Source: a virus
Direction: 5' to 3' (one strand)
Virus record (IMG/VR): IMGVR_UViG_3300024346_000010
Length of the DNA stretch: 64,000 bases
The position numbers were made by a program, and so were the translations under genes. Each line of letters opens with the position of its first letter. Position 1 is the stretch's first letter. Shown in pieces: positions 5,537 to 58,487 of this stretch. The notes beneath the pieces are model-generated. The model was not told the DNA's origin. It saw only the letters and a list, made by a program, of their open reading frames with translations, and made no database searches.

Positions 5537-5604
5537 TTTAAAAGTCACAGTATTAAAACTATAATATAGGGGTTTACTTAATCCATCCTTTATGTTAATA
5601 TATA

Positions 5605-5995
5605 ACCTGTAAACGTTGAAGCAACGTGGACACATTCTGGACCTGGGGGCGGTACCCAGCGACTCCACCATAAGGATACACAATGAAACAATATTCAAAA
5701 GAATATTTAGAGTTTGAACTGAAACACACTAAAGAGTTGGTAGAACTTCATCATAACACAAGAGATGAAGAATTGAGACTTCAAATTTTAGAAGTTAGAA
5801 AAACTCTTGAGCGTATCTTTTTGATGGGGTCGAAATTAGGATCGACAGGTGTGAAAGTGAAAGTGGAGTTTACCGGATGACTGCGTTATTGGTCAATTAA
5901 ACTAAATGCAAATGAAAATTTCGCACCTACAGGTTACGCCCTAGCGGCATAATGCTGGTGGGTATGAGCACCACCTAGAAACAGAACGGACTCGC
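5605..5995 (+). ncRNA. ssrA: circularly permuted (two-piece) tmRNA, alphaproteobacterial type
   Basis: Acceptor piece ends CTGGG-GGCGGTA-CCCAG-CGACTCC-A-CCA at 5670; coding piece starts GGGGTCG at 5826 (7-bp acceptor stem with G3:U70); tag ANENFAPTGYALAA* at 5908-5952. Outer ends approximate. Confidence 0.93.
5683..5880 (+). CDS. small ORF starting in the tmRNA intervening segment and running into the tmRNA 5' end
   Basis: SD AAGGA at 5672, ATG at 5683, 65 codons. Confidence 0.55.
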   Translation: MKQYSKEYLEFELKHTKELVELHHNTRDEELRLQILEVRKTLERIFLMGSKLGSTGVKVKVEFTG

Positions 5996-6022
5996 AACAA
6001 CTTTAATTTTATAGGACTAAAA

Positions 6023-6358
6023 ATGAAAAATATTCTCTTGGCAACAGCCGCAACATTCGCTCTTACAACTTCTGCATTTGCAGCTGATCTAGGCTATGCC
6101 GGTGACGTTGAATATGATATTGAAACAGAAACAGCTGCACTTGAATTTGGACCAGCACTTTCAATGGCCGGTTTCCTAGTTGAACCAAAAATGCACGCAG
6201 GTGCTACATTTACAGACGGCGCAACAGTAAACTTTACTGGTGTATCTGCAAAAGCAACATACGGCGTAACTGCTAATGTTTCTGTATATGGTACAGTATC
6301 AGCTGACAAAGACTTTAAATACGACACAGCAACAGTTGGTGTTGGCTTTAACTTCTAA
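6023..6358 (+). CDS. small outer-membrane beta-barrel/porin-like protein
   Basis: Signal peptide (AFA), alternating beta-strand pattern, C-terminal VGVGFNF resembling a BAM beta-signal. Confidence 0.7.
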   Translation: MKNILLATAATFALTTSAFAADLGYAGDVEYDIETETAALEFGPALSMAGFLVEPKMHAGATFTDGATVNFTGVSAKATYGVTANVSVYGTVSADKDFKYDTATVGVGFNF

Positions 6359-49681: not shown

Positions 49682-50267
49682 AATTGTTCACGTTATTGGA
49701 AATGGTGATAATTCGGCCTTATATAAACCCGCGAAGGGTATTAAGATCACATGTAACCTTCCACCATTTTCCGTAGAAAATGTATATGGATCTTGTATGG
49801 TTGATTTTAAAATGATGCGCGCGATGCATGAAGGCAGTGTGCAAGTTCCAGGTGAATGGATTCTAGGATTCAGGCCTCACAAATATCTTGAGATGTATCC
49901 CAGCATGAGACTACAATGGGCTAATCAAATTAAGGAGTTTTACCTTGACAAACCGCCTTATGTTGCAAATTATACCGACTTTAACTGTGGTCACATGGCT
50001 GTTCATTACTCGGCCAATAAACTTAAAGGCACCGAGATTCACATGTATGGATTTGATTCCATATTTGATTTCTCATTAAGAAGTTGTACTGATTTCTATT
50101 TACAATCAGATCGTGGTGATACAAACAACATGAGATTGATTAATAACTGGCGACCAATTTGGAATGGTATTTTTAATCAGTTTAGTGAGACTCAATTTGT
50201 ATTGCATCATAAACATGCTGATGTTAAGATCAATAAACCTAAAAACGTTGAAATAGTAACAAAATAA
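49674..50267 (+). CDS. hypothetical protein (sialyltransferase/MAF-like fold possible)
   Basis: VIGNG...CN...IHMYGFD. Confidence 0.5.
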   Translation: MSRIVHVIGNGDNSALYKPAKGIKITCNLPPFSVENVYGSCMVDFKMMRAMHEGSVQVPGEWILGFRPHKYLEMYPSMRLQWANQIKEFYLDKPPYVANYTDFNCGHMAVHYSANKLKGTEIHMYGFDSIFDFSLRSCTDFYLQSDRGDTNNMRLINNWRPIWNGIFNQFSETQFVLHHKHADVKINKPKNVEIVTK

Positions 50268-50391
50268 CTGTGTACATCCATAGTGCTTCGATATAGTATA
50301 AATATAACGAACATAAGGAAAATACAATGCCACAATACGACGATCCATGTGATTGTGTCGAACATTGGATTATGCATCTTAAGGAAATGAA

Positions 50392-50856
50392 ATGAAACTA
50401 TTGACGACGACAGTTATTGCCACGATGATGGCTCCTATGGCCTTTGCTGGAGAAACAGTAAACGCTCGGGTTAAAGATCATTACGCAACAGTATATGAAC
50501 ATATTCCAGTGACAAAGCGCTACTGTGAAAACGTTGAAGTTCCTGTATATGGTACACGACAAAAGAACGGTAATGCTGCTGAAGGTGCCATTCTTGGAAT
50601 GATCATCGGTGGACTTGCAGGTAAAGCAGTCACTGGTAAAGATAATGGTGCTGCAGCTGGTGCTATTATGGGTGGTGTAATTGGTGCTGACAAAGGCGCC
50701 AAACCTAAAAATGAAACTGTTGTTACTGGTTATCGTACAGAGCATCAATGCACTGACGTTACCGAATATGTAAACAATCCAAAAAATGTTTACGATTATT
50801 CAACTTTAGTGTTTACATTGGACGGCAAACAGTATAGAATAGATTTTAATAAATGA
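50392..50856 (+). CDS. secreted glycine-zipper 2TM protein (YcfJ-like)
   Basis: Signal peptide; GAILGMIIGGLAG..GAAAGAIMGGVIG. Confidence 0.85.
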   Translation: MKLLTTTVIATMMAPMAFAGETVNARVKDHYATVYEHIPVTKRYCENVEVPVYGTRQKNGNAAEGAILGMIIGGLAGKAVTGKDNGAAAGAIMGGVIGADKGAKPKNETVVTGYRTEHQCTDVTEYVNNPKNVYDYSTLVFTLDGKQYRIDFNK

Positions 50857-50864
50857 AGTTAAAT

Positions 50865-50940
50865 GACTCCTTAGCTCAGTGGATAGAGCAAGTGCCTTCT
50901 AAGCACTAGGTCGAGGGTTCGAATCCTTCAGGGGTCGCCA
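50865..50940 (+). tRNA. tRNA-Arg(UCU)
   Basis: Canonical cloverleaf, loop CTTCTAA, encoded CCA. Confidence 0.95.
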
Positions 50941-50945
50941 TATTC

Positions 50946-51030
50946 GTCAGTGCAGGTTTGCTCTTATCAATAGGTATCAAGGCGTCATACCATCAGATAA
51001 GTATGTGGTTCGATTCCACAACTGGTACCA
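50946..51030 (+). ncRNA. tRNA-like RNA with non-canonical middle arm
   Basis: T-arm TGTGG-TTCGATT-CCACA, 3' ACCA, weak acceptor stem, extended internal stem. Confidence 0.5.
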
Positions 51031-51047
51031 ATTAAAAGGAACGATTG

Positions 51048-51224
51048 ATGACAGTGTATGCAATTGAACGTAACGGTAATCTGGTTAAACATTATGTTTT
51101 TGAAGGTGATATTACTAAAATGCACACAAGACAACATTCGGTTGTTGATTTGACTTTTGATAATGAGAAATCAGCATTGGAAGTTGCAAATAAATTAAAC
51201 GCTACTGTCGTTAAAGTAGCATAA
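51048..51224 (+). CDS. 58-aa hypothetical protein, absent from ORF track
   Basis: SD AAGGA; open frame. Confidence 0.55.
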   Translation: MTVYAIERNGNLVKHYVFEGDITKMHTRQHSVVDLTFDNEKSALEVANKLNATVVKVA

Positions 51225-51238
51225 CAAGGAATTATATT

Positions 51239-51532
51239 ATGAAAAATTACTTTGATTTTAAAGGTACAGCAAAACGTCAAGAATATTGGGCAGTACTTAT
51301 TGCTTCAATCGTTGCAGGTATTATCGGGATTGTTATTACTGAGACTATTCCACTTGTAGCACTTGTTGTTTTTGTTGCAACTCTTTGGGTATATCTTGCA
51401 ACAACTGTTCGGCGTCTACGTGATGCTGACTTGCACCTTGCATGGATTATCACAGTATTTCTCCCTTACATCGCAACTGTTGCTGCCATTGTATTTGGCA
51501 TTGTAGGCAGCGCAGAGCAGAAAGAAGACTAA
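51239..51532 (+). CDS. DUF805-family membrane protein
   Basis: YFDFKG.AKRQEYW, VRRLRDA. Confidence 0.85.
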   Translation: MKNYFDFKGTAKRQEYWAVLIASIVAGIIGIVITETIPLVALVVFVATLWVYLATTVRRLRDADLHLAWIITVFLPYIATVAAIVFGIVGSAEQKED

Positions 51533-51533
51533 T

Positions 51534-51812
51534 ATGGAACCGATTACAGCAGCATTTTTCTTTGTTATGGCGTTTGCTATTGGTGAAGAAAACCGAAAAC
51601 AAGATGAATTTATTTTAAATCAACAAACAGAAATTAAAGATCTAGAAGATGATCTATATGCGACAGACGAATCTTTATATAGCCTTGTGGGATCGCACGC
51701 GTCCGCTGTCGCAGCTCTGAAAATGGAAAATGAACATTTGCGTATGCGAGTGAAATCTCTTGAAAGCGCATACGGCTACTTGGAAGGAAAAGTAGAGCTT
51801 TTTCATCCGTAA
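51534..51812 (+). CDS. hypothetical coiled-coil protein
   Basis: ORF track. Confidence 0.55.
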   Translation: MEPITAAFFFVMAFAIGEENRKQDEFILNQQTEIKDLEDDLYATDESLYSLVGSHASAVAALKMENEHLRMRVKSLESAYGYLEGKVELFHP

Positions 51813-51819
51813 GTTTAAT

Positions 51820-51896
51820 GCGGGTATAGCCCAACAGGCAGAGGCAGTTGACTTAAAATCAATACAGTGTGGGTTCGAATCCCACTACCCGTACCA
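51820..51896 (+). tRNA. tRNA-Leu(UAA), short variable loop
   Basis: Loop CTTAAAA, A73, CCA, 77 nt. Confidence 0.88.
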
Positions 51897-51904
51897 AAAA
51901 TTTT

Positions 51905-51998
51905 GGTCCCTTAGTTTAGTGGTAAAACACCCGGCTTATACTCGGCATCGTCTCCAGATTAGAGAGCGTCACAGGTTCGAATCCTGTAGGGACTACCA
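51905..51998 (+). tRNA. tRNA-Ile(UAU) with long variable arm
   Basis: Loop CTTATAC; about 24-nt variable region; CCA. Confidence 0.75.
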
Positions 51999-52008
51999 AT
52001 ATTAACTT

Positions 52009-52044
52009 TGATGTGAGGTGGTTCGAATCCACCCACTTCTACCA
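52009..52044 (+). pseudogene. tRNA remnant/minihelix (T-arm plus acceptor end)
   Basis: GGTGG-TTCGAAT-CCACC-CACTTCT-ACCA with no D or anticodon arm. Confidence 0.55.
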
Positions 52045-52067
52045 AAATTATATAACGGAGAAATTAC

Positions 52068-52376
52068 GTGTTTACAAAACGAAAGACTCATCGGGTCATA
52101 TTTGAATCAAGCGATACTAATACAAGAATCCTTGATATCTACAAGAATAAAAAAGGCACATTCAAACTTTTCTGTGATGTAAAAAGATCATCTGCAACCA
52201 TTGGTATTAATACTAACTACTGTATCTCCTATTTGAGCTCGACTGGGTGGACAGTTATTGCGGACCAGAATGATCTTGGTCTACCCAAACTATCAATTGA
52301 TGACGGATCTAACGACGTTGTTGAGAAAATTGAAGCAGGTTTCGCTAAGTTTATTGAACTAGCTGATTTGATCTGA
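52068..52376 (+). CDS. hypothetical protein
   Basis: SD GGAG, GTG start. Confidence 0.6.
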   Translation: MFTKRKTHRVIFESSDTNTRILDIYKNKKGTFKLFCDVKRSSATIGINTNYCISYLSSTGWTVIADQNDLGLPKLSIDDGSNDVVEKIEAGFAKFIELADLI

Positions 52377-52452
52377 TGTCAATGAATAATTGTCCGGAAT
52401 GTAAAATTGAATTGGGCCATGATAATTTTTGTCCCATTTGTAGAGTGAGAAG

Positions 52453-52590
52453 ATGAAATACTTACTTATTTTCGCGCTGCTAGCTGGTTGTGCTAATGTT
52501 CAGGACAATACAACTACTATGGACAAAGTAATAATCGCAACAGGCCTTGCTTTTCTAGCCTTTGGGGCTGTAGAAATAACACAACAATAA
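52453..52590 (+). CDS. 45-aa lipoprotein, absent from ORF track
   Basis: MKYLLIFALLAGC lipobox. Confidence 0.6.
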   Translation: MKYLLIFALLAGCANVQDNTTTMDKVIIATGLAFLAFGAVEITQQ

Positions 52591-52603
52591 TTGGAATTAT
52601 ATT

Positions 52604-52753
52604 ATGACACTATCCTTTAACCCAAATCAATCATTTGTTGATATGGTAATGAGTCTCCCTGATCAAGTTATTACTGACTTCTTTGAATCAATGGGAATTG
52701 AAATTAATCTCCAAGATGAAGACGAAGGTCTTCTTTATGATTGTGAAGCTTAA
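52604..52753 (+). CDS. 49-aa acidic hypothetical protein, absent from ORF track
   Basis: Open frame ending at the tRNA 5' end. Confidence 0.45.
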   Translation: MTLSFNPNQSFVDMVMSLPDQVITDFFESMGIEINLQDEDEGLLYDCEA

Positions 52754-52829
52754 GGTTCTTTGGTGTAATGGTTAGCACAAAGCGCTCATAACGCTTCAGG
52801 TCAGAGTTCGAATCTCTGGGGAACTACCA
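52754..52829 (+). tRNA. tRNA with CAU anticodon (elongator Met or Ile2)
   Basis: Loop CTCATAA, CCA. Confidence 0.9.
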
Positions 52830-52916
52830 AAACTTTTTATATTTATTTTCACTTTTTGTGAAAACACTCTAAAAAATGTATATATAATACTATATAAAAC
52901 AAGGAACATCTTTTCA

Positions 52917-53021
52917 ATGACTATCAATTCCACATATCAACTCCCGACAAAGAACGTGCAAACGCGCGGATGCTTTGCCATGGGTGGATGGAATATTGAT
53001 ATTCACGAGAGGGTATTTTAA
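52917..53021 (+). CDS. putative attenuator leader peptide (34 aa, all 20 amino acids)
   Basis: SD AAGGA at 52901; MTINSTYQLPTKNVQTRGCFAMGGWNIDIHERVF*; 3' codons overlap the antiterminator strand. Confidence 0.65.
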   Translation: MTINSTYQLPTKNVQTRGCFAMGGWNIDIHERVF

Positions 53022-53085
53022 AGAAGACATTTTTAACAAGTCTGATTTTAACAACCCTCCAAGTGAAAACTTCGGAGGGTTTTTT
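53009..53085 (+). terminator. intrinsic terminator with competing antiterminator
   Basis: Terminator AACCCTCC-AAGT-GAAA-ACTT-C-GGAGGGTT plus T-run (53053-53085); GAGGGT at 53009 can alternatively pair ACCCTC. Confidence 0.8.
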
Positions 53086-53090
53086 ATTAT

Positions 53091-53161
53091 GGTGTCACTG
53101 ATGGTTCAGACGGTTCTCTCATAAGGAACTAGGGAAGATTCGATTTTTTCTGACACTACCA
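53091..53161 (+). tRNA. compact atypical tRNA(CAU)
   Basis: Acceptor GGTGTCA/TGACACT, loop CTCATAA, weak T stem, reduced D arm, 71 nt. Confidence 0.6.
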
Positions 53162-53369
53162 AGAAAAATTTCAATTTAGGTGTTTACAACCAAATTTGAA
53201 TAATGTAAGATACTAATATGAGAACGAAGAGATAATATCAATCTTCTCAAAAGTGGATAAGCGGAACGAGACTGCGAGTAACCACTATAAACAAACTCAA
53301 ATGGGCGTCCTGGAGGATGGAAGCGTAAGCGGAAAAATCCCAGAAGAAACAGTTAATTCTGTTTTCACA

Positions 53370-53467
53370 TGCACTATGAATAATGGGAGGTAGACGGTTC
53401 GATTCCGTTCGTGAGGTGGTCCTCATTTGCCGACGGGCAACCGTGGTTCGAGTCCACAAGTAGTGCA
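53370..53467 (+). ncRNA. unknown structured RNA with two T-loop hairpins
   Basis: Closing stem TGCACTA/TAGTGCA encloses four hairpins, two with TTCGA loops. Confidence 0.55.
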
Positions 53468-53482
53468 GTTGAAAATAGAATT

Positions 53483-53566
53483 GGTCGGTGGCCCGGATGG
53501 TAAGGGGTTGGATTGCAAATCCATAGCACTGAAAAGTAGCGTGTTCGATTCACGCACCGACCTCCA
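53483..53566 (+). tRNA. tRNA-Cys(GCA) with extended variable arm
   Basis: Loop TTGCAAA, U73, variable ACT-GAAA-AGT hairpin. Confidence 0.85.
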
Positions 53567-53571
53567 AAATA

Positions 53572-53673
53572 GATCAAGCCGAACGGATCTCGAAAGTCCT
53601 TAGGCCCGCTCCTGAGGATCAAGCCACTGGAAGGTTCGAGACTTCCTTTGCAGGGTCGTCACCTGCCAGGAGT
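53572..53673 (+). ncRNA. unknown structured RNA
   Basis: CTCCTG/CAGGAG closing stem; GGAAG-GTTCGAGA-CTTCC and GCAGG-GTCGTCA-CCTGC hairpins; GATCAAGCC occurs twice. Confidence 0.45.
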
Positions 53674-53682
53674 AAAATATAA

Positions 53683-53767
53683 GGGGAAGTAAAGCGGATA
53701 GTTTCCGCAGCGAGTCTGTAAAACTCGTCTTTAACCGGGAGTGGAGCGTAACCACACTTCCCCACCA
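53683..53767 (+). tRNA. tRNA-Tyr(GUA) with atypical T-loop
   Basis: Acceptor GGGGAAG/CTTCCCC, loop CTGTAAA, T-loop AGCGTAA. Confidence 0.7.
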
Positions 53768-53773
53768 TTTTGT

Positions 53774-53849
53774 TGGAAGGTAGCTCAATTGGTAGAGCCC
53801 CTGATTTTGATTCAGGTGGTTGCAGGTTCGAGTCCTGCCCTTCCAGCCA
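53774..53849 (+). tRNA. tRNA-Gln(UUG)
   Basis: U1-A72, loop TTTTGAT, CCA. Confidence 0.93.
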
Positions 53850-53853
53850 ATAT

Positions 53854-53927
53854 GTCGGTATAGTGTAATGGTAACACGGCGGCTTCCAACTCCGCAAATC
53901 TGGGTTCGATTCCTAGTACCCTCGCCA
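53854..53927 (+). tRNA. tRNA-Trp(CCA) with acceptor-stem mismatches
   Basis: Loop TTCCAAC, G73; T:T and C:C mismatches in acceptor stem. Confidence 0.7.
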
Positions 53928-53933
53928 AATAAC

Positions 53934-54019
53934 GGGTGTGTCGCCTCAAGGTGAGGCAGTGGACTGTAACTCCATCGAGGGTTTCCTCATGCTAGGTTCG
54001 ATTCCTAGGACACCCACCA
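53934..54019 (+). tRNA. tRNA-Tyr(GUA)
   Basis: Loop CTGTAAC, long V-arm, CCA. Confidence 0.9.
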
Positions 54020-54021
54020 AA

Positions 54022-54522
54022 ATGAAAGATAATGAAATGCTTACGGAATCGCAAATCACTGAAATGATTGATCTTCTTATCAGCTGTGATGAAAATACAA
54101 AGGTGTATCTTGGTTGTGATTCAGTTCGCTATGTCAAGAAAGATAGATTCTGGGGACGTTTTGCAACTGTTGCTATTGTTCATAAGAATGGTAATAAAGG
54201 TTGCAAAATCTTTTCAAATGTATCCCATGAGCCAGACTATGATCTAAAGTCTAACAGACCTAAAATGCGTATGTTGACTGAAGTTAGAAAAGTCTGTGAT
54301 CTGTATACGCAGATAGCACCGTTCATTGATGAATTTGAAATTGAAATTCATTTGGATATCAATACCAACCCTATGCATGGATCAAACTGTGCTGCTGGTG
54401 AAGCAGCTGGATATGTTCTAGGCATGACTGGTATTCATCCAAAGTTGAAGCCTGATAGTTGGGCAGCAAGCTTTGGTGCTGACGGTGTTGCTCACGGAAG
54501 AACAGAAAAAAGTGCAAATTAA
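54022..54522 (+). CDS. RNase H-like YkuK (DUF458) protein
   Basis: VYLGCDS, EIHLDIN, KPDSWAASFGAD; the ORF-track start overlaps tRNA-Tyr so the start was moved. Confidence 0.85.
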   Translation: MKDNEMLTESQITEMIDLLISCDENTKVYLGCDSVRYVKKDRFWGRFATVAIVHKNGNKGCKIFSNVSHEPDYDLKSNRPKMRMLTEVRKVCDLYTQIAPFIDEFEIEIHLDINTNPMHGSNCAAGEAAGYVLGMTGIHPKLKPDSWAASFGADGVAHGRTEKSAN

Positions 54523-54582
54523 TTACATTAAGGGGTTTACAAACACTTATACATAGTGTAAGATACATATAACAAAGTTTAT

Positions 54583-54658
54583 TCCCAAGTAGCTCAGTTG
54601 GTAGAGCATCTGACTGTTAATCAGGTTGTCGGCGGTTCGAGCCCGTCCTTGGGAGCCA
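54583..54658 (+). tRNA. tRNA-Asn(GUU)
   Basis: Canonical cloverleaf, loop CTGTTAA. Confidence 0.96.
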
Positions 54659-54663
54659 ATAAT

Positions 54664-54753
54664 GGAAGTGTGGCCGAGTGGTTTAAGGCTCTAGTCTTGA
54701 AAACTAGCGTAGGGGAGACTCTACCCAGGGTTCGAATCCCTGCGCTTCCGCCA
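54664..54753 (+). tRNA. tRNA-Ser(UGA)
   Basis: Loop CTTGAAA, long V-arm, G73. Confidence 0.96.
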
Positions 54754-54766
54754 TGTTTATAGTTTA

Positions 54767-54842
54767 GGGGGATTAGCTCATCTGGGAGAGCGCTTGATTT
54801 GCATTCAAGAGGTGATCGGTTCGAGTCCGATATTCTCCACCA
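54767..54842 (+). tRNA. tRNA-Ala(UGC)
   Basis: G3:U70, loop TTTGCAT. Confidence 0.95.
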
Positions 54843-54846
54843 TATT

Positions 54847-54922
54847 GCCCCTATAGCTCAGCTGGTAGAGCAACTGATTTGTAATCAGTAGGTCCGCGGT
54901 TCGAATCCGTGTGGGGGCACCA
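54847..54922 (+). tRNA. tRNA-Thr(UGU)
   Basis: Loop TTTGTAA. Confidence 0.96.
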
Positions 54923-54927
54923 TAATT

Positions 54928-55010
54928 GCCCAATTGGTGGAATTGGTAGACACGCTGCACTTAGGATGCAGTGCTTCGGCGTGGGGGTTCGAGTCCCTCA
55001 TTGGGCACCA
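54928..55010 (+). tRNA. tRNA-Leu(UAG)
   Basis: Loop CTTAGGA, V-arm GC-TTCG-GC. Confidence 0.95.
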
Positions 55011-55040
55011 TATCATCTAGCAGAAAAGGAAAAAGATTAG

Positions 55041-55403
55041 ATGGCATACTGGGGTTATCATGCAATGTTTGATTGCGCAGCATGTGATATTGATAGTATC
55101 ACAAGCAAAGAGAATGTATATAATTTTATTAAAGAATTGGTTCCGGCAATTGATATGGTTGCATTTGGCGAACCAATGATTGAGCATTTTGCTACTCACG
55201 CCCCTGATAAGGCTGGTATTAGTTTTGTTCAAATGATTGAGACTAGCAATATAAGTGGACACCTAGTAGATGCAAACGGTGACGCTTATATTGATATTTT
55301 CTCGTGTAAGCCAGTTGATATTGGTGTAGCACAAGATACAATTGAAAAGTTTTTTAAGCCTACAAAAACTCGTGTAAACTTTATTACACGTAGCGCAGGC
55401 TAA
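55041..55403 (+). CDS. speD: S-adenosylmethionine decarboxylase proenzyme
   Basis: GYH...D, IETSNISGH self-cleavage region, YIDIFSCK. Confidence 0.85.
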   Translation: MAYWGYHAMFDCAACDIDSITSKENVYNFIKELVPAIDMVAFGEPMIEHFATHAPDKAGISFVQMIETSNISGHLVDANGDAYIDIFSCKPVDIGVAQDTIEKFFKPTKTRVNFITRSAG

Positions 55404-55410
55404 GATTTGA

Positions 55411-55489
55411 CGCAGAGTAGTAGCAGTCCGGTCAGCTCGCCAGTCTCATAAACTGGAGGTCGGTGGTTCGAATCCACCCTCTGCAACCA
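55411..55489 (+). tRNA. tRNA-Met(CAU), initiator-like
   Basis: C1:A72 mismatch, loop CTCATAA; anticodon stem CCAGT/ACTGG. Confidence 0.85.
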
Positions 55490-55493
55490 ATTA

Positions 55494-55583
55494 GGAAGTG
55501 TGGCCGAGTCCGGCTTAAGGCACTAGTCTTGAAAACTAGCGAACCGCAAGGTTCCGTGGGTTCGAATCCCACCGCTTCCGCCA
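55494..55583 (+). tRNA. tRNA-Ser(UGA), second copy
   Basis: Loop CTTGAAA; different V-arm. Confidence 0.95.
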
Positions 55584-55595
55584 TATAAAGTTTAA

Positions 55596-55671
55596 GCCGC
55601 TATAGCTCAGATGGTAGAGCGCCTGATTTGTAATCAGGATGTCCGGGGTTCGATCCCTCGTGGCGGCACCA
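55596..55671 (+). tRNA. tRNA-Thr(UGU), second copy
   Basis: Loop TTTGTAA. Confidence 0.95.
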
Positions 55672-55675
55672 TAAT

Positions 55676-55712
55676 AAAGGCACCTTGACTTCGGTCTTGG
55701 TGCCTTTTTTTT
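55676..55712 (+). terminator. terminator closing the tRNA cluster
   Basis: AAAGGCACC..GAC-TTCG-GTC..GGTGCCTTT followed by T-run. Confidence 0.85.
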
Positions 55713-55759
55713 ATTATAGATACTTTATATGATATAATATATAATGATAGGAATATATT

Positions 55760-56887
55760 ATGAATGAACTTAAATCTTTTTATTGGTCTAATGATTCTAA
55801 AAAAATATTAAAAACAGAAGGTTGGAAAATACACTTTGCCGATGGAACATCTGAATTTGATGTGCTTGCAGGAGGATTGTCCTTTATATGTGGTCAAGGA
55901 AATAGAGATATTTTAGAAGGCTTAGAGGATGCTATTTGTCAAGTTTCCCGTAGCCAGTCTAATAAAGGGCATTATACTGACTCTATTGTGAAAGCCGGAG
56001 AAATTTTAACACAAGGAATGTGGCATTCGCATTCGTGGGCGCTTTCTGGCACCAACGCAGTAGAAGCAGCAATTTCAATGAGTGACGAATATTGGGCTGA
56101 ATTGGGAGAATATAAGCCACATATTGTATCTTTTCCTTTCGCTTGGCATGGATCCAGTTATCTTGCAAAGTCTTTAGGAACTCCTGAGATTCTTTCACAC
56201 GTATCTAGTAGAGTTAAACACGCGACTGAAGAATCTCTTGAAGATATTTTAGATCAAAATCATGTGGGTTGTATTATTTTTGAAACTTCCACTTTTATGA
56301 ATGGTATCAGACCTAGACCTAGGTCTTTCTGGAAGAGAATAAGAGATATCTGTGATGAAAGAGATATTCTTATGATCACTGATGATGTAGCTTCTTGTTG
56401 GGGAAGATGTAAAGATTATCACACTTATAATGTTAGCGGATATGGAATTCAGCCTGATATATCAGCCGTCGGTAAAGCTTTAACTGGCGGTTATTCGCCT
56501 CTTGGGGCGGCATTGTGTAATGATAAAGTTGGTGAAGTTATATCTAAACCAGGCGTATGGAAATATCCAGGTACATGGCAACCATCAATGGTGGGTATTC
56601 ATTTAATGATCAATACTTATAATTATATGACTACTAATAACCTTATCGCTAATACATATAATATTGAAAATCATTTGGATATTTTAGGAAAACGTCTAAT
56701 TGATAAAGAAGTAATTGATGACTATAGACTGCACGGCGCTTTCTTTGCATTTGATTTAAAAGATCAAGTAAATGCGAGTGGATATAGCTCTACTAAGACT
56801 GAAGCCAATACTATTAAAGGTTGTGCTCCATTAATAGCAAACGAAGAGTACTTTAAGGAACTCGAAACATATGTCTATCAAAGTTAA
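55760..56887 (+). CDS. class III PLP aminotransferase
   Basis: SGTNAVEAA, WHG, DDVASCWGR, PDISAVGKALTGG. Confidence 0.9.
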   Translation: MNELKSFYWSNDSKKILKTEGWKIHFADGTSEFDVLAGGLSFICGQGNRDILEGLEDAICQVSRSQSNKGHYTDSIVKAGEILTQGMWHSHSWALSGTNAVEAAISMSDEYWAELGEYKPHIVSFPFAWHGSSYLAKSLGTPEILSHVSSRVKHATEESLEDILDQNHVGCIIFETSTFMNGIRPRPRSFWKRIRDICDERDILMITDDVASCWGRCKDYHTYNVSGYGIQPDISAVGKALTGGYSPLGAALCNDKVGEVISKPGVWKYPGTWQPSMVGIHLMINTYNYMTTNNLIANTYNIENHLDILGKRLIDKEVIDDYRLHGAFFAFDLKDQVNASGYSSTKTEANTIKGCAPLIANEEYFKELETYVYQS

Positions 56888-58487
56888 GTTTCTAGCATTT
56901 AGCTATACTAAACCATATTCGTTCAATCCTGTTGCATTTTGGCTCCGTTCTTTTTATAAGAAAAACGGCAAGCATTATGACAAATTTGAATGGCTTCCTA
57001 CAGAATATTTCTATGATGAATCCGTTGTAGATAAAATCATAGATGAAGAGACAAATATTCTCTGCCTGTCAGTTTATATTTGGAACTTCGAAAGTATGAT
57101 GAAAGTCGCCGAAGAAGCTAAAGCTAGAAACCCAGGTCTTATCATATATGTCGGCGGGCCAGAATGTCATGCTCATACCGAAGACGATTGGTTTGAAAAA
57201 TACCCATTTGTAGATTTTGCAATATATGGTGATGGCGAAAAGGCCTTCGCTGATCTTCTTGATTGGGAAATTGAATCACCGACATTTTTATCAGATATTC
57301 CAAACATAGTGTATAGAGATCATAAATCAAAGCATCAAATTTTTAGGTTTAGGGAATACGAAGAATACAGTCCATATTTGGATTTAAAAGAAGATTTTCT
57401 TTCTGATTATAAATCATTTAAATCTAAAGTCGATGATGCGTTTGTGTATCTTCCATACGAGCGTACCCGTGGATGCATGTATTCATGCGCGTTTTGTGAT
57501 TGGCAAGGTGGTTTACATTACAAGGTCAATAGACGCATAAACGATTATAAGCCTGAGATTGATTTCTTTGTTGATAATAATATTAGAACAATGCACATTG
57601 ATGCTAATGTTGGAATGGATAAAGAAGATATTCCATTATACGAATATGTTTATGATAAGATGCAAGAAAATCAGTTAGAGTTTATCCCGACTGAACCAAG
57701 AAATATGGCAAAGCTCAATAAGGATAAAGTTGCTAAGATATATGATATCCTGTGCAAAGCTTCTCCAAACTATAATGTGAAAGTATCTCTACAATCCATC
57801 TATGAAGATGTTTTGTCTTATATTGAAAGACCTGATATTCCATGGGATCAACATAAGCAAATCATTATGAAAACAAAAGCTGATCACCCTGGAATTAAGG
57901 TTGTGCCTGAACTTATCATGGGTTTGCCTGGAATGACTTATGACAGGATTAATGAGACTCATCTTGAATTTACTGATATTCCTATGACTCACATATATGC
58001 ATATGAATGGATCTTGTTAAAGAAAGCTCCGGCGTACTCTAAAGAATATAGAGATAAAAATAGCCTTACTGTAACTAAAACTTTCTATCCTGCTATTTTT
58101 ACTGGTTTGGATTCTGAAAGTATATCATATGATGATTTTATAGAAGATCCTAATATTCCTATCAATAAAAATCAGGCATATTTTATTGATATGGTATATG
58201 ATAAAACTCTAGGGATTAAAGGAGTAATTTATAATAAAATCATAACAAGGCTTTACAATAGAATGGCATATCATCCTGACTTTAGTCGTAAGTGGCTTAC
58301 TGAATATTTAAAAATGCATTCAGATTATTTTATTGATGTTGCTGAAAAAGAAGCCAAAATCCAAGATGAGTTTTTTTCAAATCATGGGTTTTATATTTGG
58401 GGAAAATGTGATATAATTGAAAACAAGATTAGAAATTATGAAGCTGTCATTGATCAGTATATAAACACAACTTTGGAAGGAATTTAA
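56871..58487 (+). CDS. B12-binding radical SAM enzyme
   Basis: SVYIWN, GGPE, GDGE, RGCMYSCAFCDW, ELIMGLPG. Confidence 0.9.
   Translation: MSIKVKFLAFSYTKPYSFNPVAFWLRSFYKKNGKHYDKFEWLPTEYFYDESVVDKIIDEETNILCLSVYIWNFESMMKVAEEAKARNPGLIIYVGGPECHAHTEDDWFEKYPFVDFAIYGDGEKAFADLLDWEIESPTFLSDIPNIVYRDHKSKHQIFRFREYEEYSPYLDLKEDFLSDYKSFKSKVDDAFVYLPYERTRGCMYSCAFCDWQGGLHYKVNRRINDYKPEIDFFVDNNIRTMHIDANVGMDKEDIPLYEYVYDKMQENQLEFIPTEPRNMAKLNKDKVAKIYDILCKASPNYNVKVSLQSIYEDVLSYIERPDIPWDQHKQIIMKTKADHPGIKVVPELIMGLPGMTYDRINETHLEFTDIPMTHIYAYEWILLKKAPAYSKEYRDKNSLTVTKTFYPAIFTGLDSESISYDDFIEDPNIPINKNQAYFIDMVYDKTLGIKGVIYNKIITRLYNRMAYHPDFSRKWLTEYLKMHSDYFIDVAEKEAKIQDEFFSNHGFYIWGKCDIIENKIRNYEAVIDQYINTTLEGI

Follow-up and report, generated by a model that had tools for sequence, protein, structure and literature searches.

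What is the role of a 34-codon open reading frame (ORF) that lies inside the tRNA cluster of a phage, contains every one of the 20 amino acids and is followed by a strong terminator? The tRNA genes of phages are commonly regarded as constitutive cargo, with a role in tuning codon usage or in making good the tRNAs that host defences cut. The window, meaning the whole stretch of 64,000 nucleotides analysed here, belongs to a large uncultured phage; all its long ORFs lie on the + strand, its tRNA cluster occupies 50.8–55.7 kb, and its ribonucleotide reductase is ~60% identical to the enzymes of Rhodobacter and Ruegeria phages. A preliminary description of this DNA had read the ORF as a leader peptide coupled to an attenuator and as a candidate sensor of general tRNA depletion. 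The sequence anatomy of the locus, its conservation among relatives, its two competing RNA folds and its conserved amino-acid composition point to a ribosome-mediated attenuator in, or at the head of, the phage tRNA cluster, in which fast translation would lead to termination, and a stalled or missing ribosome to read-through. We consider this reading probable. The broader claim, that the leader senses the supply of all amino acids, is more tentative.

Anatomy of the leader locus

The locus comprises the following elements:
52883–52888, + strand: putative −10 box (TATAAT) of the leader promoter P1; relatives carry TTGACA-17-TATAAA(TA) in the same place.
52901–52906, + strand: Shine-Dalgarno sequence AAGGAA, 10 nt upstream of the ATG.
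52917–53021, + strand: leader ORF, ATG, 34 codons and TAA, all 20 amino acids; codons 1–28 form the predicted stall-sensitive part.
53009–53028, + strand: antiterminator 5′ strand (GAGGGT, TTTTAAAG, AGAC), covering codons 31–34, the stop codon and 7 nt beyond.
53040–53059, + strand: antiterminator 3′ strand (GTCT, TTTTAA, ACCCTC), whose last 6 nt are shared with the terminator 5′ arm.
53053–53085, + strand: intrinsic terminator, with a hairpin at 53053–53081, a GAAA loop and a T-run to 53085.
53091–53161, + strand: tRNA(CAU) gene whose D arm is short and whose CCA end is encoded; the sole gene between the terminator and the next promoter.
53183–53211, + strand: promoter P2, sigma-70-like, TTTACA-17-TAAGAT, which can drive downstream RNAs independently; relatives carry TTGACA in the same place.

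The leader ORF is present as originally described, preceded by a Shine-Dalgarno sequence and complete in its amino acids. Its Shine-Dalgarno spacing of 10 nt exceeds the 6–7 nt of other genes in the window; AAGGAA is found likewise at 9–10 nt in the relatives L001, L017, L003 and L036. A consensus promoter scan of the window did not list P1, which has no clear −35 element. The strong terminator placed ~30 nt past the stop codon is also real: its hairpin begins 31 nt past the stop and consists of 8 bp followed by 4 bp with one bulged C, at −16.7 kcal/mol.

The preliminary description had a tRNA gene starting right after the terminator, and a gene indeed begins six nucleotides beyond the T-run. 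The window copy is called by neither ARAGORN nor Rfam; its homologs are called by ARAGORN as tRNA-Met(CAT) with a short D arm. The cloverleaf holds for the anticodon loop, the T arm and the acceptor stem: among 8 homologs, 17 of the 21 predicted pairs show compensatory changes and the CTCATAA loop is invariant. The early caveat that another promoter near 53184 might act independently was well placed, as P2 lies there. Because this promoter follows the tRNA(CAU) gene, that gene is the only cargo that the terminator could gate exclusively in the window.

How unusual is a leader with all 20 amino acids? The probability of finding 20 of 20 in 34 residues is 0.0013 with the amino-acid frequencies of the window and 0.0018 in real 34-residue protein windows. 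Among the 245 ATG-initiated ORFs of 25–45 codons in the window, one is complete and ~0.3–0.5 would be expected by chance, so that the 20/20 content is not compelling from the window alone. The variation of synonymous codons, singled out at first as a further peculiarity, is real but does not exceed chance (27 distinct codons against 26.5 expected); the relatives show only a weak trend, and we reject codon variety as a design feature. Both results would suit a chance ORF beside an ordinary terminator, and it is the comparison with relatives that bears on this reading.

A family of leader modules in front of phage tRNA genes

IMG/VR was scanned for the terminator pattern, strictly and then in relaxed form, and relatives were also fetched through a neighbouring RNase H-like protein. 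The strict terminator occurs in 11 distinct IMG/VR contexts, and all 11 are laid out alike. A promoter is followed by a small ORF whose last codons include GAGGG or GGAGG; the terminator comes next, and behind it lie either tRNA genes or a further promoter. In the relaxed scan, 32 distinct sites have tRNA genes behind them on the same strand, and every one carries a promoter and an ATG-initiated ORF of 19–42 codons, although such family counts overstate independence, since the members are homologous (L022 and L025, both cut by contig ends, are included). Homologous leaders upstream of tRNA arrays, which had been suggested as the first thing to look for, are thus found at 32 distinct sites. In all of them the stop codon of the leader lies 24–33 nt upstream of the terminator, and the ATG is either led by a Shine-Dalgarno sequence or placed 6 nt past the −10 box, as in leaderless-type members. 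The relatives' promoters are of the sigma-70 type, and in many relatives, as in the window, a consensus promoter follows 3′ of the terminator. Each tRNA cluster has only one module, which in one subfamily stands at the head of the entire tRNA array.

The terminator arms are not identical throughout. In L003 and L004–L008, found via the neighbouring protein, the layout is the same and the terminator arms are different: AACCTCC / GGAGGTT in L003, and GGCCCTCTG / CAGAGGGCT in L004–L008, where tRNA-Trp and tRNA-Gly follow. The end of the ORF is in each case complementary to the arm and spacer of its own lineage. A further 71 matches of the relaxed scan without tRNAs are ordinary gene-end terminators and served as controls, and the 12 bacterial copies of the strict pattern lack both the motif upstream and tRNA genes downstream. 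Some 17 peptide clusters have kept the module together with its composition, and the control terminators are without these features, which argues against a chance ORF; the comparative data already contradict that reading, and we regard it as extremely improbable.

A DNA search of GenBank phages with the leader locus of the window and the modules of two relatives found no match, and the leader module therefore has no known cultured model.

Some members differ in detail around this common plan. In L124, L044, L069, L077, L082, L048, L059, L063, L065 and L071, the leader ATG lies 6 nt past the −10 hexamer; with no Shine-Dalgarno sequence, these leaders would be leaderless mRNAs. A conserved motif of ~29 nt, starting with GTTCTTTAAAAATTT and ending with CAAATGTT, is found between the terminator and tRNA-Gln, the first gene of the array, in L124, L044, L069, L082, L048, L063 and L065, whether or not a consensus promoter has been inserted. 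The motif may act in processing or regulation.

Two mutually exclusive folds share the terminator arm

The alternative pairing proposed for the window is present. GAGGGT at 53009–53014 pairs with ACCCTC at 53054–53059, and the helix is extended by TTTTAA and by the AGAC/GTCT pairs; the resulting long antiterminator hairpin is the minimum-energy fold of the partial transcript, before the 3′ arm of the terminator is transcribed. Folding of both conformers gives two competing structures that differ by +2.1 kcal/mol in the window (terminator versus antiterminator), whose antiterminator is the weakest of the family, with a duplex of −10.7 kcal/mol. Pairing of the 1:2 type (anti-antiterminator or pause hairpin) in the terminator conformer is only weak, at 7 bp.

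The family shows the same exclusive arrangement as the window, an antiterminator that shares a strand with the terminator, and the controls differ sharply from it. When the end of the ORF is paired with the 5′ arm of the terminator, the median energy of the best duplex is −18 kcal/mol for family members and −7 for the 71 controls (Mann-Whitney p = 2e-14). In its minimum-energy fold, the partial transcript of 31 of the 32 family members pairs the CCCTC core with upstream sequence; 22% of controls do so. The mean difference between the two conformers of the full leader is +4 kcal/mol in the family versus +11 in controls; near-equal predicted energies of this kind are the expected signature of a bistable element.

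Outside an invariant core, the sequence of the helix varies by lineage and complementarity is kept, so that the alternative pairing tracks the terminator in relatives, the covariation for which the preliminary description had called. Owing to the unequal length of the spacers, RNAalifold predicted no structure from a plain MAFFT alignment; instead, the sequences were folded one by one and compared with controls, and a model-fitted alignment was made. With fixed columns, 68% of positions are paired versus 64.5% after shuffling, a modest covariation that is due to the invariant helix core. In the model-fitted alignment, 82% of cells pair versus 78% in shuffled data (a value attained by 0 of 500 shuffles), and sliding the partner strand reduces pairing to 39–66%. 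The stop codon lies inside the helix in all 32 members. Members differ in the codon phase of the purine motif that pairs with CCCTC, and all three phases occur (E-G, R-V, R-G-G, G-G), which argues for a constraint on the RNA and not on the peptide.

Could the RNA structure be the whole story, and the ORF incidental? The module would then be an RNA processing or stability signal, such as an RNase III-type site, or a terminated small RNA of ~190 nt acting in trans like rnTrpL. The antiterminator formed by the partial transcript is a long, nearly perfect hairpin of −17 to −34 kcal/mol, as a processing signal might be, the terminated RNA would end in a stable hairpin and a U-tail, and attenuator-derived small RNAs are known (PMC6614838). 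Such a signal leaves unexplained why the ORF stays open over 19–42 codons in all 32 members, why its ATG is fixed relative to the Shine-Dalgarno sequence or the −10 box and its stop always falls inside the helix, and why its amino acids are complete. We think this account quite unlikely, although a trans-acting role of the terminated RNA could coexist with attenuation.

Leader composition is held while the peptide drifts

The amino-acid composition of the leaders separates them from other small ORFs. Thirteen family members contain all 20 amino acids and the remaining long leaders 18–19 types; ~10 lineages of long leaders keep 18–20 types. In a comparison set of 1631 other ORFs of 33–42 codons from the same DNA, only 4 have 20 types and 17 have 19. 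The complete leaders fall into four groups with only 16–33% identity between groups, and in a neutral-drift simulation 0.3–1.4% of descendants are still complete at this divergence. Completeness is therefore seen to persist as the peptide drifts, as had been asked of the family at the outset, and it is its conservation in relatives that makes the 20/20 content significant. In L001 and L025, all 20 types occur within the first 28 codons (P = 7e-5).

The peptide sequence behaves differently from its composition. The ratios of non-synonymous to synonymous changes in three close pairs of leaders are 4:0, 6:3 and 10:2, and the position of Val moves within the peptide between L048 and L071. Neither these pairs nor the divergent groups gave any sign of purifying selection on the peptide sequence. 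With non-synonymous changes at or above the neutral level and a relocated Val, the sequence is free to drift as the composition is held. This drift weighs against an independent micro-gene, in which the ORF, with a promoter and a terminator to itself, would encode a functional small peptide, the hairpin at the stop codon would serve mRNA stability or translation control, and the tRNAs would be transcribed from neighbouring promoters. Consensus promoters do lie 3′ of the terminator in the window and in many relatives, and motifs do recur in the peptides, namely G-F/Y-G-N/K-G at the C-terminus and L-P-L-L-S-G-W in one subfamily. The recurring C-terminal motif, however, falls on the RNA helix, and its reading frame differs between members; two exclusive, near-isoenergetic helices that share the terminator arm would have no explanation in a micro-gene, nor would the 20/20 composition or the match to the tRNA array. 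A search of a peptide database with a 41-residue relative returned two matches only, the query itself and one other protein. We judge a micro-gene unlikely.

Below ~32 codons, the amino-acid diversity of leaders is not unusual. Not counting Met, however, the contiguous tRNA arrays behind these short leaders stand for 43 amino-acid types, of which the leaders hold 42, against 30.6 expected (Fisher P = 0.003). Of the amino acids missing from leaders with 18–19 types, only about half correspond to a tRNA that is missing too, and we rest no claim on this relation. In several complete leaders, 1–3 amino-acid types occur only in the last codons, where stalls should go unsensed, so that completeness of the whole ORF is not fully explained by the geometry of the switch.

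A proposed attenuation mechanism and its sensing range

The probable attenuator would work as follows. The promoter would start a short mRNA, and the end of its 34-codon ORF would fall within the antiterminator 5′ strand; the spacer and the 5′ arm of the intrinsic terminator would together form the 3′ strand. A ribosome that keeps pace with RNA polymerase as far as the final codons or the stop would cover the antiterminator 5′ strand; once this strand is covered, the terminator would form and transcription would stop before the tRNA(CAU) gene. A ribosome delayed in codons 1–28, or a leader left untranslated, would allow the antiterminator to form first, and the polymerase would continue into the tRNA gene and the units behind it. 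We infer that the ORF is translated, that its translation is coupled to the polymerase and that the switch responds to stalling. The leader would be kept rich in amino acids, with all 20 in long forms and the set of the downstream tRNAs in short forms. Lack of any one of many charged tRNAs would then produce the same signal.

The geometry of the window leader was analyzed by masking the ribosome footprint at each A-site codon and refolding the transcript. The antiterminator is predicted to form fully for stalls at codons 1–27, to be partly lost at codon 28 and to be largely lost from codon 29 to the stop, and it also forms without any ribosome; the switch point at codon 28/29 is where it would be expected. 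The sensed codons comprise 18 amino-acid types, with Glu and His present only in the tail. Because stalls from codon 29 on mask the antiterminator, Glu and His would not be sensed in the window, just as the preliminary description had cautioned for the last codons. Its reading as ribosome-mediated attenuation is supported by the three comparisons for which it had asked, on homologs, on completeness and on the alternative pairing. For the untranslated leader, mask folding predicts read-through rather than termination.

The idea that the leader samples nearly all tRNAs in order to gate the phage tRNAs stands in part: 18 types would be sensed, but only tRNA(CAU) would be gated exclusively. With a promoter after the terminator, read-through would only add to independent tRNA transcription, which lowers the leverage of the switch. 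A link to starvation or to anticodon nucleases is speculative. It is in this sense that we propose, tentatively and as one possibility, a pan-amino-acid translation sensor in large uncultured phages, in which slow decoding of any codon, through starvation, codon-usage mismatch or host anticodon nucleases, would raise phage tRNA transcription and in which the leader would hold every amino acid or exactly the set of the array.

Other features of the window and its tRNA cluster

Several further elements of the window were seen in the course of the analysis. A phage-encoded permuted tmRNA gene (two-piece type) lies at 5576–6043, and L010 and L011 have a related tmRNA with a similar tag. Within the tRNA cluster, the tRNA-Ile gene at 51905–51998 (94 nt) has a UAU anticodon and a long variable arm, with homologs in L003 and L020. 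Two tRNA-like fragments, at 50941–51030 and 52000–52045, were seen by eye directly 3′ of called tRNAs; both have a T arm of the form GTGG-TTCGAxT-CCAC and an ACCA end, and ARAGORN and Rfam call neither. Beyond the promoter at 53183, ~250 nt (53225–53470) hold no credible ORF and contain two hairpins that resemble T arms (ACGG-TTCGATT-CCGT and GTGG-TTCGAGT-CCAC), closed by TGCACTA/TAGTGCA; parts of this region are kept in L018, L020, L015 and L029, and it has no Rfam match.

Two protein genes interrupt the cluster. The gene of the RNase H-like protein (PF04308, E = 4e-13) lies mid-cluster at 54022–54522, and the protein is 58–86% identical across 14 viral contigs; a gene similar to that of S-adenosylmethionine decarboxylase is found at 55041–55403, between tRNA blocks. 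A strong terminator at 55677–55706 (−17.5 kcal/mol), without a small ORF, closes the cluster after the last tRNA-Thr.

Comparison with known attenuators and tRNA-responsive elements

The small ORFs in the tRNA region of phage T5 are similar in setting, being short ORFs that lie with promoters among phage tRNA genes. Those examined run straight into tRNA genes, lack an intrinsic terminator and the alternative pairing, and have an ordinary composition apart from length effects; as no terminators follow them, we reject them as the same device. T-box riboswitches likewise couple tRNA charging to a choice between terminator and antiterminator for translation-related genes. They bind uncharged tRNA directly without a leader ORF, and the phage element is much shorter; the T-box covariance model of Rfam has no match at E ≤ 1 in 50000–57000.

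The leader attenuators of enterobacterial amino-acid operons (trpL, hisL, leuL, pheL, thrL and ilvL) share with the phage element a promoter-proximal short ORF, a terminator before the regulated genes, and an antiterminator strand in common with the terminator, with the position of the ribosome picking the helix. The two show no sequence homology, and they differ in several respects. The phage element would regulate tRNA genes rather than biosynthetic enzymes. Its leader has no run of a single codon and holds instead all 20 amino acids or the set of the downstream array; this absence of the regulatory-codon cluster of classical attenuators is the main departure. Its stop codon lies inside the antiterminator 5′ strand, not between regions 1 and 2. 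The untranslated phage leader is also predicted to read through, because the 1:2-type hairpin of the window is so weak.

Precedents exist for parts of this arrangement. The leaders thrL and ilvL are multivalent, each sensing more than a single amino acid, and pheST, which encodes the phenylalanyl-tRNA synthetase of E. coli, is a translation component under leader-peptide attenuation (pheM leader) that responds to charged-tRNA supply. The pheST system differs from the phage element in sensing a single amino acid through Phe codons, in having a protein-coding target and in being bacterial and chromosomal. A search of the literature on attenuation of tRNA genes or on all-amino-acid leaders found no relevant description, and a feedback loop on tRNA supply would be, if the pan-amino-acid reading is true, one not previously described for tRNA genes. 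A conserved switch that ties tRNA transcription to the speed of translation would mean that phage tRNA supply is regulated by demand, and the module, compact at ~190 nt, could act as a natural sensor for translation stress in general. It would also widen leader-peptide attenuation, known for single amino acids, to the entire decoding repertoire.
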